A stretch of DNA of 40,772 nucleotides, taken from a virus. Taxonomy: Duplodnaviria; Heunggongvirae; Uroviricota; Caudoviricetes. The stretch is from positions 1 through 40,772 of the IMG/VR virus record IMGVR_UViG_3300028456_000002, one strand, 5' to 3'. Position 1 is the stretch's first letter. Every line of letters starts with the position of its first letter. Made by a program: the position numbers and the translations under genes. A model generated the notes under the pieces. That model searched no databases. It was given only the letters and a program-made list of their open reading frames with translations, and was not told the origin of the DNA. This document shows positions 15,853 to 28,199 of this stretch, in pieces.

Positions 15853-17361
15853 TTATTCTTCGGACTGGTCGTCGTTGTGCTGCGGCTCCTGTCGTTTCGT
15901 TGCGGCACTGCTGCCTCCTTTATCACTGGCCGGATCGGTATCAAATACCAGATCCAGCTTGCGGTTTTCATCAATTTCGGCCTTGCGCCGACGTTTGACA
16001 TCATCCGGATTACGACCACCTGCACGTACCCAGTCTGATTCTGTCGCCGCTCCACCACGAATCTGGATTTTCCAGGCCTCAGCCTCCTTAACAGGGTCAA
16101 TCCACGGCATCACCGGTCCGGAATACACCGCGGTATACAGTGAAGAACGGTCAAGATCGCGGGGTAGCCTGATAACACCGGATGCAACAGCCTGTTTCAG
16201 CCAGGCACGGTACATCGGGCGGGTGACGGCACCAATAAACCAGTCCTGCAGGATCAGGTAGCCATCCGTGGATTCAACCAGCTCCTGACGCTGGGCGCTG
16301 TAAGTGCCGTTATAGTTGCGCGCTGTACTGGAAAAACTCAGACGACTGCCCGCCGCCACTGCACGCAACTGACCATTACGAAAAGTTTCAAGATTAGGAT
16401 TGGGGCGATCCGACTTCACCATTCCGATTTCTTCGCCGGGTTTCAGATCGTCGTAAATAATGCCTGGCTGAATGGTAAGCTCGCGTTCATTCTCCTTGCT
16501 GCCATTACCATCCGGTTCATAGCTCTGTCCGTCGCCTTTCCGGATGTACATCCCCAGAGCAGCGGCGATCCTTGCTGCAGTCAGCTCAGAATCTTCATAC
16601 TCTTTCAGGGCACTGAGGCGGATCAGTACACCGGACAATAAAGACGTCCCGCGCATCTGGTGCAGACGGCGAACAAATTTAAGATGCAGCATTCGCTCTG
16701 CATCCACTTCTTTGGTTTCCATCTGCCGTCCGGATACAGGACGGCTTTTATACACCAGATATTTTTCGGGACGCCCCCAGTCATCAACAAACACGCCCTG
16801 ATTCAGCCTGTTGCTCTCATCACTGGTCATGGGAATAAAGTCCGGCTCAAGCGCCTCCAGCCAGAAATGAACACCGGCAGAAGGCGTCAGGCTGTTTATG
16901 CGCCCGGAAACCATCTGGGCAAACACCTCACCATCGCGCAGCCAGGTACGCAGCATCAGACGTTCCAGCATCGGGCGGGTAAACTGCCCGGTGACTTCCG
17001 GACTGACAGACCATTCACTCCATCGGGTGCGTATCTCCGCTGCCAGGTCACGGGCAATGGCCCCATTGCGTAATACCGGATGTGGCTCGACAATAATCCC
17101 GTTTTTCCCCACCACCCGTTCTTCCAGCTTGTCAAATACACCAATAACCAGATCGTGGTTGTTATCAAGGTAACGGGCCTGCTCACGTAACGACACGGCC
17201 CCGTACTGGCTTAACTGGTCGGCAGTTCGGTTTTCCCGCCGGGCTTTGTGTGTCCGCGTCGTTTTTACGGCCTCATAAGCCTGGATCACCGCACGGGAAC
17301 GCAGCCTTGCCGCTTTCCATCCTGGTGAAAAAACGCCAATCACATCATCAAGAATTGCCAT
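15853..17361 (-). CDS. Portal protein
   Basis: ORF 15853..17433, about 500 aa, position between W-like gene and protease/capsid; start probably MAILDDVIGVF... Confidence 0.8.
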   Translation of the reverse strand: MAILDDVIGVFSPGWKAARLRSRAVIQAYEAVKTTRTHKARRENRTADQLSQYGAVSLREQARYLDNNHDLVIGVFDKLEERVVGKNGIIVEPHPVLRNGAIARDLAAEIRTRWSEWSVSPEVTGQFTRPMLERLMLRTWLRDGEVFAQMVSGRINSLTPSAGVHFWLEALEPDFIPMTSDESNRLNQGVFVDDWGRPEKYLVYKSRPVSGRQMETKEVDAERMLHLKFVRRLHQMRGTSLLSGVLIRLSALKEYEDSELTAARIAAALGMYIRKGDGQSYEPDGNGSKENERELTIQPGIIYDDLKPGEEIGMVKSDRPNPNLETFRNGQLRAVAAGSRLSFSSTARNYNGTYSAQRQELVESTDGYLILQDWFIGAVTRPMYRAWLKQAVASGVIRLPRDLDRSSLYTAVYSGPVMPWIDPVKEAEAWKIQIRGGAATESDWVRAGGRNPDDVKRRRKAEIDENRKLDLVFDTDPASDKGGSSAATKRQEPQHNDDQSEE

Positions 17362-17579
17362 CAGAACCTCGCCAGCCGGTACCCGGGATGCCCCCGTCGT
17401 CGTGTAATCAGAGCCGCAAGGCGGCGCTCCCACTCCTGCCGCCCCTGCCGGATCTCAGATAAGTTTTCCATGGTCATCTGCTGACCATTAAAGGTGACGG
17501 ATTTTCCGTCCAGCACCGCCATTTCAGCTTCCGTATAACGCTGAATCATGGCTTCAATATCATTCTGGTTCATAACCAT
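17361..17579 (-). CDS. W: Head-tail connector protein W-like
   Basis: 72 aa, C-terminus ...RRRGHPGYRLARF resembles lambda W end; stop overlaps portal start. Confidence 0.6.
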   Translation of the reverse strand: MVMNQNDIEAMIQRYTEAEMAVLDGKSVTFNGQQMTMENLSEIRQGRQEWERRLAALITRRRGHPGYRLARF

Positions 17580-19674
17580 CCTCCGGAAGTCATCCAGGGG
17601 TTAACATCGTCAGTTACTGTTTTCTTCCGTTTTTGTTTTTTAACAGGCGTGGATACCGATTCCGGTGAGGGTGACGGTTCGATACTGTCCGGGACACACT
17701 CCAGCCATGTTTCCCGGCTCGCCCATTCCGGTGCATCCGGCCAGCGGATCTTTTCGTATCCATGCAGAATGACCAGAGCCTCGGCATACACCATCAGGTC
17801 AAAGGCTTCGTTGGCACCGCGACCCGGCTTACTCCATTTCCCGTCACTGCTCCGCTCTTCATACGTCAGTTCGTCGTAAAACCAGCTCCCCAGCCAGTCA
17901 GGGAAATGCACATAGCCTGGACCTGGCGAATCACGCCATAACGCGTTATTCACCCGGTCTTTCAGGGCATCCGTCTGAAGAAGCCAGAGCGGCACATCAC
18001 CTGCGGCCTGCGCCCGTCGGCCCGTTCGTCCGATGTTATCAGGGAATGTACGGGTGATCAGTTTTGCGCGCCGGATGCTGTCGCCCTTAAACAGGTAAAT
18101 ACGTTTACCAAGGCCATCACGACGGCAACGACGCCAGAATTTATAGGCATTATCAGTGACCCCGTCTTCACCGCCGGAGTCCACCGCCATTGCCATCAGT
18201 CGCATTTGTTGAGAAGGATCGGAGGCCAGCGGCCAGCTTTTATCAAAAAAACATCTGTCAGCAGGACATCCCAGTCTTCCGGATAGCTGGCCGGATCAAT
18301 TCGCTGGCTCTCCCCGTCGCTGTCACCGCGCAATGACTGCGTGATGTTGTAACGATCAATAATCCAGCGTTCGCCACGGCTGCCATAGCCCGTTACCTGA
18401 ACCACAAAACGGCGATGACGTCCCGCCTGCACATCAACTGTCGCCACTAGGAAATTAACGCCATCCGGCACACTGCGGGGAGGAACTGGCTCTGCTCGCT
18501 GCTCAAGCAGCTCACTTTTTCGTTGCTCCATGCTGGCGCGGGGAAGATAAGGTAATCCCCAGTCGGTATTGATAACCGTCTTGAGTGTTTCTTCACTTCC
18601 GGTTGTCTCGTATTCCTGTTCTGCAGTAAGCAGTTTGTAAACGAGTTGCGAGAGTGTCTGGTAAGCAGCTGCCGGACCCTCCATCCAGAATGACGCAATA
18701 CGTGAACGCCTGGGATCACCATAACGACTGCCATCCGCACTGATGGATTCACCATCCCGCAACCAGACCCCACGTCCGTTCAGCTCACGTTTTTGTTCAG
18801 GCATAATCCGTCCTGAACAGAAAGGACACTGAATATAAGCCGCCTCACTTGCCAGCACGGGATCGGCAATATCACGGAAACCAGCAACCACATCGCCGCA
18901 GGGCTGAAAATACTCACCACAGTGTGGACATGGCCAGTACCAGCGACGGCGATCACCACGGTTATAGAGCGACAGGATCCCCGTGGTTGGTGGAGCCTCA
19001 TGCGGTGAAGTCCGTCGCCATTTCACATCCTTCACATCCCTGCCGGGGGAACTCTCCACCAGCGTCATACCGCTGGACATAAATGTGGTGGTACGTTTTG
19101 AGGCAAGAGAGAAGGCATCCCCCTCGCCATCAATATCTTCCGGAAAACGGTCATAATCCGTCAGCGCGACGCATTTATAATCTGATGAGGACATGATATT
19201 GACTGACGGCCAGCCGATTTTCAGGTAGTTGCCAGCAAGGAATGTTCTGTCATAAACGTTGTTGTCATTTTTGTTCGGACTCAGGCGACTGACCACTTCC
19301 GGGCTGACGCGAAACGTTCTGGCGAGTCGTTTTTTGGAGTGTTCGCGGGCTTTTTCCTCTGTCATCTGAATGATCAGCATATCCGCAGGATCGCAAATCA
19401 CGTTGTAAATCACCCAGCCGTCAATCAGGCCGATAGTCTTGCCGGTTCGTGCCGGACCAACAAATATCACTGCGTCGTATTCACGCGAGGCCAGGCAGTT
19501 CATCGGCTCAATAACATACGGTGCCACCAGCGGATCCCACGGGACTGAGTTCCCGGCCCCCATGGGCACCCGCATATACTGAGCAACGGCATCAGCAACC
19601 CGCATTCGTCTCGGTGCGCGAAGGATATAACCTGAATCGGTTCGTGCTGCCTTTGCGGTTTCCTGATTCAGCAT
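17570..19674 (-). pseudogene. Terminase large subunit, split into two ORFs by a frameshift in a T7 run
   Basis: ORF 18196..19674 carries the N-terminal ATPase region (...WPCPHCGEYFQ... like lambda A); ORF 17570..18205 carries the C-terminal nuclease part. On the minus strand GATGTTTTTTTGATAAAAGC has 7 T; 8 T would give one continuous frame. Confidence 0.85.
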
Positions 19675-20168
19675 TACTCCTCCTGCTGTAATTCCTCCTC
19701 ATCATCCGCACCTGCTTCGGTCACCCGCAGGGCTATCTGATCGCGCAGATCATCAATAATGGACTGAACACGGCTCACAGCGGCAGGCTGCAGACCGCAG
19801 TCACGTTCCAGAATATCCGGTAATGTCTCCAGCACCTGCACGACCGCTTTTGCCCAGATGGCAAACTCCCGTCTGACATCACTGGCCGGAATGAGTTGTG
19901 CCGTTTCCTGTTCGAACTTAAGACGCTCACGTTCAGACTGATACCAGGCTTTGCGCTCATGCGCGTCCATTTCGCCTTCTGCAACCGGCGGTGGTAATGC
20001 CAGAAATGCCGACACAATATCAACCACCCGATAAAGCTTGAGGTTGCTTTCATGCCCCCCTGCAACGGGTAGATTTTGCAGCCTTGCCGCAGCAGTCTGG
20101 CGATGTACACCTGACAGTGCCGCCAGTTGACTGATATTCAGCGTCAGATTTTTTAACTCTCGATCCAT
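19674..20168 (-). CDS. Terminase small subunit
   Basis: 164 aa with N-terminal HTH-like segment (LNISQLAALSGVHRQTAAARL), acidic C-terminus; immediately upstream of the large subunit and downstream of cos. Confidence 0.75.
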   Translation of the reverse strand: MDRELKNLTLNISQLAALSGVHRQTAAARLQNLPVAGGHESNLKLYRVVDIVSAFLALPPPVAEGEMDAHERKAWYQSERERLKFEQETAQLIPASDVRREFAIWAKAVVQVLETLPDILERDCGLQPAAVSRVQSIIDDLRDQIALRVTEAGADDEEELQQEE

Positions 20169-20337
20169 ACCCGCTCCAGAATGTTTTAAACATGCATCTT
20201 GCGAACAACTTTAGGCAAACGGTGTTAGTGATGAACAAAAAACAATCAAAATCGACACCATTAAAATAAAATAACTGTAATATCAATGCATTACAGTAGT
20301 GGTGATGACGAATGAAATTTCAAAAACTAGCCTTTTT

Positions 20338-20359
20338 CCGCGACGCTCCCGCCCCGTGG
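20338..20359 (-). other. cos site (cosN-like cohesive end region)
   Basis: Minus strand reads ...CCACGGGGCGGGAGCGTCGCGGAAAAAGG..., closely resembling the lambda cos core (GGGCGGCGACCTCGCGG, recalled from memory); about 180 bp upstream of the small terminase gene. Confidence 0.55.
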
Positions 20360-20468
20360 CAAGGGTACCCCACCGGGAGGACCCGCAAAATGAGAGCGAT
20401 TATCATTTGTACACACTCTAACACCTGCATTATCGCAGCCCCTCGCTGAAGGGCTGCTGTAATGCATG

Positions 20469-20765
20469 TTACTCAGTAACAACTGCGCCTTCCGGTAATT
20501 CCATACCGGCAAATACCGGACAACCAGGATGACGATCATCTTCTGTTGCTTCCAGCATTGACTCACCAAACCACTCCGTCGTGGCGCGACCATCAGCAGC
20601 TTTGTAGTGGAGTAAGTACTGGTTTTCGCCATCCGCATACTGCGCGCGGGCTTTAACCTCACCCCATTCATCACTGATGCGCATCTCCACCAGTTGAGAC
20701 AACTCAAACTTAAACGGGACAGTAGCGGCACCAATTACAATCGGTTTGTTTTTTGTTGTTTCCAT
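20469..20765 (-). CDS. Hypothetical protein between lysis genes and cos
   Basis: ORF 20469..20816; likely start METTKNKPIVIG...; no recognisable motif. Confidence 0.45.
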   Translation of the reverse strand: METTKNKPIVIGAATVPFKFELSQLVEMRISDEWGEVKARAQYADGENQYLLHYKAADGRATTEWFGESMLEATEDDRHPGCPVFAGMELPEGAVVTE

Positions 20766-20939
20766 CATCGTCTCCTGATATCGAAGCCCGTCGCCGCACC
20801 GGGCACTGATCAACATTTGAGTATTCGCGGCGACAGAAAGAATTTATTTTATTGAGTAGCCACAAAAACAGAATTTCATGCTTTCCGGACGCTGACGCAT
20901 CCTTCATTTTTCAGCAAAATATTCTGCTCTTATAGGCGA

Positions 20940-21136: not shown

Positions 21137-21520
21137 TCAGCGTTTCAACTGAAAGTGAGGCCCGTCTTTCAGTGTTTTCCAGTCCCCGCCCCATTCGATG
21201 GCAGTCCCCAGCTCTGCGGCAGCCTGTTTAAATGCCTGCGCGATTTTCTCGTACAGAGGCCAGTCCCATGACACCTGGCTGCCAATGTAGGCCACAACAT
21301 CCACCGCATCACCGGTCAGGTGGCGGCTGTTCATGGTCTGGCTTTTCCCTTCCGCGACCAGCTGTTTCTGGCGATACTTACTGCGCAGGCCTTCCGTAAT
21401 ACCGAAATCAACCTCCGTCAGCTCCAGCGCACGGCGAACGACAGCAACCAGCTGTGGTTTGACGCCCTCCAAATTTTTTTCACTGCGACGGCTGAATCTG
21501 AATTTACCCGGCATATTCAC
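21137..21520 (-). CDS. Endolysin, peptidase M15 (D-Ala-D-Ala carboxypeptidase-like)
   Basis: 127 aa with ...SRHLTGDAVDVV... zinc-peptidase motif. Confidence 0.8.
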   Translation of the reverse strand: MNMPGKFRFSRRSEKNLEGVKPQLVAVVRRALELTEVDFGITEGLRSKYRQKQLVAEGKSQTMNSRHLTGDAVDVVAYIGSQVSWDWPLYEKIAQAFKQAAAELGTAIEWGGDWKTLKDGPHFQLKR

Positions 21521-22734: not shown

Positions 22735-22809
<75 letters not shown>

Positions 22810-22812
22810 ATA

Positions 22813-22888
<76 letters not shown>

Positions 22889-23057: not shown

Positions 23058-23984
23058 TTAACGATTATTTTTTATTTCAATTACAGTCTGATTAAATCTC
23101 TCTTCTTCCAGCTCCACACCTATTGCACGCCTTCCCAGCGATAATGCTGCCTTTATTGTTGACCCCGACCCCATAAAAAAATCAGCAACCAAATCTCCCG
23201 GATGGCTGCTGGTAGTAATTATCTGACGCAACATATCCGCCGGTTTCTCACAGGGATGTTTGCCGGGGTAATACTGCACAGGTTTGTGCGTCCAGACATC
23301 TGTATACGGAACGGCAGCCGATACGGAAAAATAACGCCGCAGAGATTTGTACTCATCCAGCAGACTGGCATATTGCCGGTTCAGTTCACTGTATGTGCTG
23401 ACCAGCTGGTGGTGTGGCTTTTCCAGTTCACCGCGCTGATGTTTTTCTGCTGCAACACGCGCAAACAACGCCTGTAATTTCAGATAATCGCCTTCGTTCG
23501 GCAACTGCCACTGACTGATACCAAACCAGTGCGAAGCCATGTTTTTCTTTCCGGTGGCTTCCGCTATCTGTTTTGACGTTATTCCCAGTGATTCACGCGC
23601 ATCACGAAAGTAAGAAATCAGCGGAGCCATCACGTGCTGCTTAAGCTCGCGCCCCTTTGCCGCATAGCCGTCATTTTTGGGCTGGTATGGCCCCTGATAA
23701 TGTTCTGCAAACAGAATGCGTTCTGTTGCCGGAAAATACGCTCGCAGACTTTCCTTGTTGCACCCGTTCCAGCGCCCGGACGGCTTCGCCCAGATAATGT
23801 GGTTCAGCACATTAAAGCGTTCACGCATCATGATTTCGGTGTCAGATGCCAGGCGATGACCACAGAACAGGTAAAGACTTCCGGCAGGCTTCAGTACCCG
23901 CCAGAATTGCGCCAGACACTGGTCCAGCCATTTCAGGTAATCATCGTCGCCCTTCCACTGGTTATCCCAGCCCTCGGGCTTCAC
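23058..23984 (-). CDS. DNA methyltransferase (N6-adenine/N4-cytosine type); annotated ORF lacks the catalytic N-terminus because of a frameshift
   Basis: 308 aa ORF from a GTG. The same frame is open upstream to 24089 and encodes KYPVVELINADCLEFIQTLPENSVDLIVTDPPYF (DPPY motif). An ATG at 24105 (MINTVK) is in another frame; the A5 run GTAAAAATAT would join them if it were A4. Confidence 0.8.
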   Translation of the reverse strand: MKPEGWDNQWKGDDDYLKWLDQCLAQFWRVLKPAGSLYLFCGHRLASDTEIMMRERFNVLNHIIWAKPSGRWNGCNKESLRAYFPATERILFAEHYQGPYQPKNDGYAAKGRELKQHVMAPLISYFRDARESLGITSKQIAEATGKKNMASHWFGISQWQLPNEGDYLKLQALFARVAAEKHQRGELEKPHHQLVSTYSELNRQYASLLDEYKSLRRYFSVSAAVPYTDVWTHKPVQYYPGKHPCEKPADMLRQIITTSSHPGDLVADFFMGSGSTIKAALSLGRRAIGVELEEERFNQTVIEIKNNR

Positions 23985-27763: not shown

Positions 27764-27919
27764 TTACTCCTCAGATTCGTAAGCTGTGAAGACAGCGACC
27801 TCCGTCTGGCCGGTTCGGATTCGTACCTCGCAGAGGTCTTTCCTCGTTACCAGTGCCGTCACTATGACGGTTAAACAGATGACGATCAGGGCGATTAACA
27901 TCGCCTTTTGCTGCTTCAT
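27764..27919 (-). CDS. hok: Hok/Gef family type I toxin (HokD-like), inside an N-terminally extended mok frame 27764..27976
   Basis: MKQQKAMLIALIVICLTVIVTALVTRKDLCEVRIRTGQTEVAVFTAYESEE, 51 aa, single TM helix, near-identical to chromosomal Hok proteins; the 70-aa in-frame upstream extension corresponds to mok. Confidence 0.85.
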   Translation of the reverse strand: MKQQKAMLIALIVICLTVIVTALVTRKDLCEVRIRTGQTEVAVFTAYESEE

Positions 27920-28199
27920 AGCCTGCTTCTCCTTGCCTTTCGGCATGTAAGAGGCTAACCTACATGTGCAAAGCATGAAATTGGCCTCAGATTAATGTTA
28001 AGCGTCTTGCCGGACGCGTAATGTTAACTGGGGCTTTTCTCTATCTGCCGTTGGTGTTCATGCCTGAGACAGATAGCCTCAAGCACCCGCAGCAATTCTA
28101 CTTAACTATCCTTTTCCCGCAAATCGTTTTTATCCCCAGCGGCAAATCGAATACACCACCAGCGCCACTGCCATCGCGATTCCTACTGTTGTGAATGCC

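Follow-up and report, generated by a model that had tools for sequence, protein, structure and literature searches.

A probable lambda-type cohesive-end site, with a separate hairpin nearby, upstream of the terminase genes of a lambdoid prophage

The window (the whole stretch of viral DNA analysed here, 40,772 nt) carries the packaging genes of a lambdoid prophage on its minus strand. All genes around the site described below lie on that strand, and a non-coding gap of 300 nt between a 115-aa ORF and the small terminase gene holds both a lambda-like cos region and a hairpin. In transcriptional order the features are as follows, with cos positions counted from window coordinate 20354, where the predicted overhang starts (bp 1).

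21137-21520, minus strand: gene for an M15 endolysin
between the M15 endolysin gene and the 115-aa ORF, minus strand: small lipoprotein-like ORF
20469-20816, minus strand: 115-aa ORF (phrog_1935), equivalent to L33 of phage phiP27, with the hairpin at its 3' end
20426-20466, minus strand: stem-loop beginning two bases past the stop codon of the 115-aa ORF; not a cos subsite
20387-20405, minus strand: conserved segment 5' of cosQ, TGATAATC ... CATTTT, where the cos-associated homology with lambda, cdtI and phi458 has its left edge
20378-20384, minus strand: cosQ, GGGTCCT, the packaging-termination subsite; same heptamer as in lambda at the same 23-nt distance from the overhang
20355-20377, minus strand: 23-nt spacer between cosQ and cosN, whose final two bases, CG, flank the predicted nick 20355/20354 in the gene-sense strand
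20343-20354, minus strand: cosN cohesive end, GGGCGGGAGCGT, predicted 12-nt 5' overhang
between 20343 and 20342, in the window's plus strand: predicted second cosN nick
20322-20342, minus strand: I2-like segment, bp 13-33, CGCGGAAAAAGGCTAGTTTTT, invariant in the three cosB classes
20300-20308, minus strand: candidate R3 (small-terminase binding), TCATCACCA, bp 47-55, direct
20281-20293, plus strand: candidate I1 site for IHF, TATCAATGCATTA, bp 62-74
20252-20260, plus strand: candidate R2, TCGACACCA, about bp 95-103, inverted relative to R3 and R1
20226-20234, minus strand: candidate R1, TCATCACTA, bp 121-129, direct
19674-20168, minus strand: small terminase (TerS), 164 aa, DUF1441 / phrog_141, with an N-terminal helix-turn-helix-like segment
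17570-19674, minus strand: large terminase, gpA family, with ATPase and nuclease domains; two ORFs through a 2-nt insertion at 18244-18245
15853-17433, minus strand: lambda-family portal (Pfam), downstream of the large terminase

Two further features of the window lie away from this region. An Rfam match to the sok antitoxin RNA (27914-28088, minus strand; 112 bits, E = 7e-25) suggests a hok/sok-type toxin-antitoxin locus in the prophage. In the region given by 22735-22888 (minus strand) and 23058-23984, two phage-borne tRNA genes, tRNA-Gly(TCC) and tRNA-Thr(TGT), have an ORF resembling a DNA methyltransferase on one side and the lysis genes on the other; a related E. coli prophage has tRNA-Ile and tRNA-Arg at the equivalent place.

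Reading along the minus strand, GGGTCCT (20384-20378) is followed by the 23-nt spacer, by GGGCGGGAGCGT (20354-20343) and by CGCGG. A preliminary description of this DNA had drawn attention to a minus-strand motif resembling lambda cosN, about 180 bp upstream of the small terminase gene. The motif is real (GGGGCGGGAGCGTCGCGG, 20355-20338), the distance fits (position 20354 is 186 nt upstream of the ATG at 20168), and the likeness to the lambda cohesive-end core reflects true homology that reaches well past the 18 nt first noticed. The pattern GGGTCCT-N23-GGGCGG-N6-CGCGG has a single match in the 40.8-kb window (20338-20384, minus strand), even when two mismatches are allowed, and occurs in none of 100 dinucleotide-preserving shuffles. 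CG dinucleotides flank both predicted nicks (caCG/GGGC...GCGT/CGcgg, with slashes at the nicks). The 16-bp cosN, CGGGGCGGGAGCGTCG, has partial two-fold rotational symmetry: four symmetric pairs, or 8 of 16 bp, by a hand count that gives the published 10 of 16 when applied to lambda. On the side of cosQ away from cosN, similarity to phi458 and mEp460 begins at about 20405 by sequence comparison. A TGATAATC ... CAT(T)TT motif, 3-27 nt upstream of cosQ, is common to the window, cdtI, phi458 and lambda (in the last as GATGATAATCATTATCACTTTAC).

The core recurs widely. The exact 17-mer GGGCGGGAGCGTCGCGG is present in at least 120 viral contigs, and about 120 loci have virtually the same sequence over bp -31 to +33. 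Among lambda-like phages, cosQ and the nick-flanking CG pairs are conserved and natural variation of the overhang is common at bp 7-12 (PMC4669245). Our scan of viral contigs found lambda's own overhang at 114 of 126 places with the shared architecture, the other overhangs varying at bp 7-12 only. Most relatives with the window's overhang have a cosQ-cosN spacer of 22 nt (58 of the 62 loci of the window's cosB class, class A below), and a few have one of 21 nt; since spacers of 21, 22 and 23 nt all occur among the relatives (about 120 loci), the spacing tolerates a change of 1 nt. Such 1-nt indels are incompatible with coding, and for this reason the small ORFs that run across cos (20299-20421 and 20312-20449 on the plus strand; a 135-aa ORF, 20327-20734, on the minus strand) were rejected as genes. 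The hypothetical-protein CDSs annotated over the cos core in the records of mEp460, 569R4, PhiR40_1 and others are probably spurious, given the same indels. A full-text literature search for the exact overhang 12-mer and its complement returned no relevant paper, and the region of cos and hairpin gave no Rfam match at gathering score, the only match with E up to 1 being a meaningless one to a snoRNA.

A different cos-like family was seen just downstream of the 115-aa ORF and hairpin in the viral contigs L253, L277, L280, L282, L316, L323 and L324. It consists of GGGTCCT, TTCCAGAACCTGAAACACCG, 12 hypervariable nucleotides (GGGGTCATGGGA, GGGGGATGCGGA, AGGGTACGCGTA and others) and CGCGCAAAAACGCGCTATTTATGAAAATTTTC, and its overhang-like segment is far more variable than that of the GGGCGG family.

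Past bp +33 the roughly 120 loci split into three cosB classes, distinguished by the sequence that follows:

cosB class A, including the window: ...LNISQLAALSGVHRQTAAARL
cosB class B, the cdtI/Tritos type: ...FKIAEAFGLHRDTVKKRL
cosB class C: ...LNINQLAALSGLHRQTVVARL

Behind each class stands a different small-terminase N-terminus. cosB and TerS set packaging specificity in lambda and phage 21 (PMC4669245), I2 acts in packaging termination (PMC4669245), and the reading of cosB by the small terminase is established for lambda, 21 and N15 (PMC4669245, PMC9026076). Such a class-wise pairing of cosB with the TerS N-terminus is what one would expect from a large terminase served by cosQ, cosN and I2 and a TerS that reads cosB. 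The comparison illustrates a known rule, namely that cosQ, cosN and I2 travel with the large terminase and cosB with the N-terminus of TerS.

Within the window's cosB, the IHF consensus WATCAANNNNTTR has its one match in the whole 40.8 kb, lying between candidate R3 and the inverted R2, and across 52 distinct class A sequences the variable columns within this site fall in the NNNN of the consensus. The motif TCRWCACYA stands at bp 47 (direct), bp 95 (inverted) and bp 121 (direct); it was defined after these three copies had been seen, which biases any statistic for its enrichment. The position of candidate R3, bp 47-55, matches those of R3 in lambda (bp 50-65) and in N15 (bp 48-60) (PMC9026076). 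A reasonable reading, with the R sites assigned post hoc, is that the window's cosB carries the lambda plan R3-I1-inverted R2-R1, and it supplies candidate R sites for small terminases of the DUF1441 type.

The small terminase is 100% identical to TerS of phi458, Ayreon and 569R4 and has no detectable sequence similarity to lambda Nu1 (BLASTP E = 20). The large terminase contains the Pfam domains GpA_ATPase (E = 1.6e-71) and GpA_nuclease and is only 25% identical to lambda gpA. Any packaging mechanism proposed for the window is thus transferred across distant proteins. Despite this divergence of the terminase from that of lambda the cos core is conserved, in agreement with the cosN survey of Vahanian et al. 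(2017) in the form in which later papers cite it.

All steps of the mechanism that we envision are taken over from lambda. The DUF1441 small terminase would bind the three R repeats of cosB, and a bend introduced at I1 by IHF would bring R3 and the inverted R2 face to face. This arrangement would place the gpA-family large terminase, in two copies, on cosN, to nick the minus strand at 20355/20354 and the plus strand at 20343/20342. Separation of the strands would leave the 12-nt 5' overhang GGGCGGGAGCGT as the left end of virion DNA, running toward the terminase and head genes. Further along the concatemer, the terminating cut at the following cos would be directed by cosQ (GGGTCCT), cosN and I2. 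By analogy with lambda, the nick positions and the binding of TerS and IHF are predictions, as is the activity of the window's own copy.

That activity is called into question by the large terminase gene. Set against an intact homologue of 700 aa (98.3% DNA identity), the window's gene has an insertion of 2 nt at 18244-18245, in a T-run, that splits the GpA_nuclease domain over two ORFs. The insertion occurs in none of the 1,922 E. coli records carrying that gene segment (best match 97%), and it may be either a sequencing error at a homopolymer or a mutation that inactivated the gene recently. Because the frameshift falls in the nuclease domain, the window's large terminase may not cut its own cos, and packaging may be disabled in this genome. 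The insertion also creates T_TTT_TTG in the zero frame, from which a -1 slip restores a 701-aa protein whose sole change is FH to FLD. Judged from the reading frames, such a slip might rescue the frameshifted large terminase; we mention it as a curiosity and do not claim that it happens.

The hairpin noted earlier beside cos is also present: a perfect 7-bp stem, GCAGCCC/GGGCTGC, encloses a 9-nt loop at 20435-20457, and no T-run follows. RNA folding gives a fuller structure at 20426-20466, a GC-rich stem-loop of 17 bp in two helices (an outer one of 7 bp, a 2x2 internal loop, an inner one of 10 bp and an AGC loop), and a repeat search returns arms of 22 nt that are 82% complementary. The 66 nt of 20415-20480 have an RNA folding energy of -30.6 kcal/mol (z = -5.1), a value that none of 200 shuffles equalled. 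No U-tract comes directly after the stem, which is followed by GGUGUUAGAGUG, and a terminator/promoter scan made no call at the hairpin. The only terminator-like site of that scan, 21073-21048, falls inside the lipoprotein-like ORF and is probably due to chance.

The structure accompanies the ends of accessory genes. Relatives of the 115-aa ORF were taken from 80 viral contigs, the end of the ORF could be located in 69, and in all 69 the stem-loop stands directly behind the stop codon. In many lambdoid phages, several unrelated accessory ORFs of the late region have the same 40-nt structure behind their stop codons; in a sample of 151 places with the 3' arm, about half lie behind the 115-aa ORF and the others behind other ORF ends. 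The stem is kept, its pairs being mostly invariant or altered by one-sided, GU-compatible changes, and the loop varies in both length and sequence. Covariation is uninformative: a single double change was seen in one of 15 pairs, the others being invariant or GU-compatible. Phage phiP27 has the same 115-aa ORF and hairpin closing its late accessory region, as in the window, together with other neighbour genes, another terminase and an annotated 10-bp cos-site without homology to the window's cos.

Several explanations of the hairpin have to be weighed against this distribution. It lies about 40 nt upstream of cosQ, where it could be an extra cos subsite, for example an upstream site for terminase or a host factor that aids termination together with cosQ, and a 14-nt inverted repeat (20286-20299 / 20454-20467, 93% complementary) ties one hairpin arm to the I1 region of cosB. 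The proximity is nevertheless peculiar to few loci: the hairpin is within 140 nt of cos in only 2 of the 62 class A loci and absent from that range in the 60 others with the same cosB, 102 of the 151 places with the 3' arm have no cosQ within 700 nt, and in phi458 and cdtI the hairpin lies about 180 nt further from cosQ than in the window. The long-range complementarity fares no better, since the bases that lengthen it are uncommon (relatives mostly have CAGG where the window's arm has CATG, and only three of the tallied class A cosB sequences have GC at the matching position), and the inverted repeat bracketing cosQ and cosN is probably a coincidence. As the hairpin recurs after ORF ends, mostly without a lambda-type cos nearby, it is not a cos subsite, and we regard the subsite explanation as very improbable. 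A DNA-level boundary or recombination hotspot between phage modules, with no RNA structure involved, would account for the stem-loop standing behind several unrelated ORF ends and for the fact that similarity between differing contexts stops just past the 3' arm. Against this, the wobble-compatible one-sided changes in the stem and the free variation of the loop form a pattern that fits selection on the fold, and breakpoints at a short conserved sequence are expected anyway through homology-driven exchange; a hotspot is accordingly an unlikely explanation. We instead view the hairpin as a separate element behind the stop codon of the final accessory ORF of the late region ahead of cos, with no part in packaging. 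Most likely its role is at the transcript level, as a weak terminator or as a 3'-end protecting structure or exonuclease block of a portable accessory gene. That it is more generally a portable RNA processing or stability signal, or a type of terminator without a U-tract, marking the 3' edge of mobile 'moron' cassettes, is a conjecture to which we give little credence, and the same holds for a rescue of the large terminase by the -1 slip.

For cos itself, a chance likeness to lambda in a phage that packages by the headful (pac) mechanism is scarcely credible: the chance expectation for the 47-nt composite pattern in the window is zero, more than 120 contigs have a homologous region, and the large terminase and portal belong to the gpA and lambda families. 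A more serious possibility is that cos is a fossil, an intact site that the broken large terminase cannot cut and that works only when a co-resident phage with the same cosB specificity supplies terminase in trans. The division of the GpA_nuclease domain between two ORFs and the private nature of the insertion, seen in 0 of 1,922 E. coli records, speak for it. A T-run is a typical site of sequencing error, however; cos, small terminase and portal all appear undamaged, the large terminase is elsewhere 98% identical to the intact homologue of 700 aa, and a -1 slip at T_TTT_TTG might still yield some full-length 701-aa protein. On balance we hold the fossil explanation to be possible and somewhat less probable than its negation. 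Read on the minus strand, the region is very probably a cohesive-end site of the lambda type in a lambdoid prophage, with the hairpin a separate element that takes no part in packaging. This identification draws on sequence homology, the geometry of the subsites, the families to which the genes belong and the way in which each cosB class is paired with its own TerS N-terminus.

The site is a typical lambda-like cos, a known widespread variant already present in sequenced phages, and its significance goes little beyond annotation. For this prophage family it gives the ends of the genome and the mode of packaging, cos with a predicted 12-nt 5' overhang GGGCGGGAGCGT, a site that most public records leave unannotated and that several cover with a hypothetical CDS.

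Among the public relatives, the records of cdtI (AB285204) and Tritos (OV696610) begin exactly at GGGCGGGAGCGT, a start that was either measured or set by analogy, and end with ...GGGTCCT and 22 nt ending ...GCCACG; from these starts and ends, the records were opened at the lambda-equivalent nick. Both phages share with the window the cosQ heptamer and an identical bp 1-33 (overhang and I2), and their large terminase is about 79% identical over the N-terminal region. They differ from it in their cosB, which is of the other class noted above, in their small terminase (about 42% identity, another N-terminus) and in their 22-nt spacer. The phages mEp460, phi458, Ayreon and vB_EcoS-569R4 have the window's cosB class, a small terminase 99-100% identical and cos DNA about 94-96% identical to the window's, and differ from it in their 22-nt spacer, the NNNN of I1 and the upstream gene context. 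None of these four records carries a cos annotation. phi458 is a spontaneously induced prophage, and Ayreon was isolated on E. coli K-12, its authors inferring cos packaging from terminase phylogeny only. In the Ayreon record (MF807953.1, about 44480-44570, locus L330), a fragment of the small-terminase CDS is fused to cos at about bp 13-17, without cosQ and cosN, and a 'putative late gene regulator' CDS is annotated across the fusion. It looks like an assembly join at a physical DNA end; as evidence for such an end it is too ambiguous and was set aside.

Gifsy-1, a Salmonella phage counted among the lambda-like phages by Feiss and co-workers (PMC4669245), has the same cosQ and 23-nt spacing, and its overhang, GGGCGGCAGCGT, is one base (bp 7) off the window's. 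It is unlike the window in its Nu1-like small terminase and lambda/21-like R sites, and its overhang is followed by CGCAGG, that of the window by CGCGG. Gifsy-2, like the window, has a DUF1441 small terminase (47.5% identical), and its cosB contains three R repeats: GTCAGCACTGAA at bp 52, TTCAGTGTCGAA (inverted) at bp 99 and TTCGACACTGAA at bp 123. These have a TC(G/A)NCAC core and nearly the same distances, and are clearer than the window's candidate repeats, which in this comparison stand at bp 47, 97 (inverted) and 121. By contrast, its cosQ and cosN have diverged from those of the window (GGTACTC..., overhang region GGTGGCTTCGGGCT).

Lambda is a further close parallel; its junction was reconstructed for the alignment by joining its two real genome ends. 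The comparison with lambda cos bears out the likeness first suggested from the cosN motif, as cosQ, the spacing, bp 1-6, the CG flanks, CGCGG and the I2-like segment all match. The lambda junction reads acGGGTCCT, 23 nt ending ttaCG, GGGCGGCGACCT and then CGCGGgttttcgctatttatgaaaatttt; that of the window reads gcGGGTCCT, 23 nt ending ccaCG, GGGCGGGAGCGT and then CGCGGaaaaaggctagtttttgaaattt. The two overhangs are identical at 8 of 12 positions, with bp 1-6 the same and differences at bp 7, 8, 9 and 11, and rotational symmetry of cosN involves 8 of 16 bp in the window against 10 of 16 in lambda. The R sites of the window are unrelated in sequence to those of lambda, and its small terminase is of the DUF1441 type where lambda has Nu1. 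The two sites share the cosQ heptamer at 23 nt, CG pairs beside both nicks, CGCGG and an AT-rich I2-like segment, and the two phages share a gpA-family large terminase and a lambda-family portal. The window's candidate R and IHF sites would follow lambda's plan R3-I1-R2(inverted)-R1, and the small terminase starts at almost the same distance from the nick, with its ATG at bp 187 in the window and the Nu1 ATG at bp 191 in lambda.
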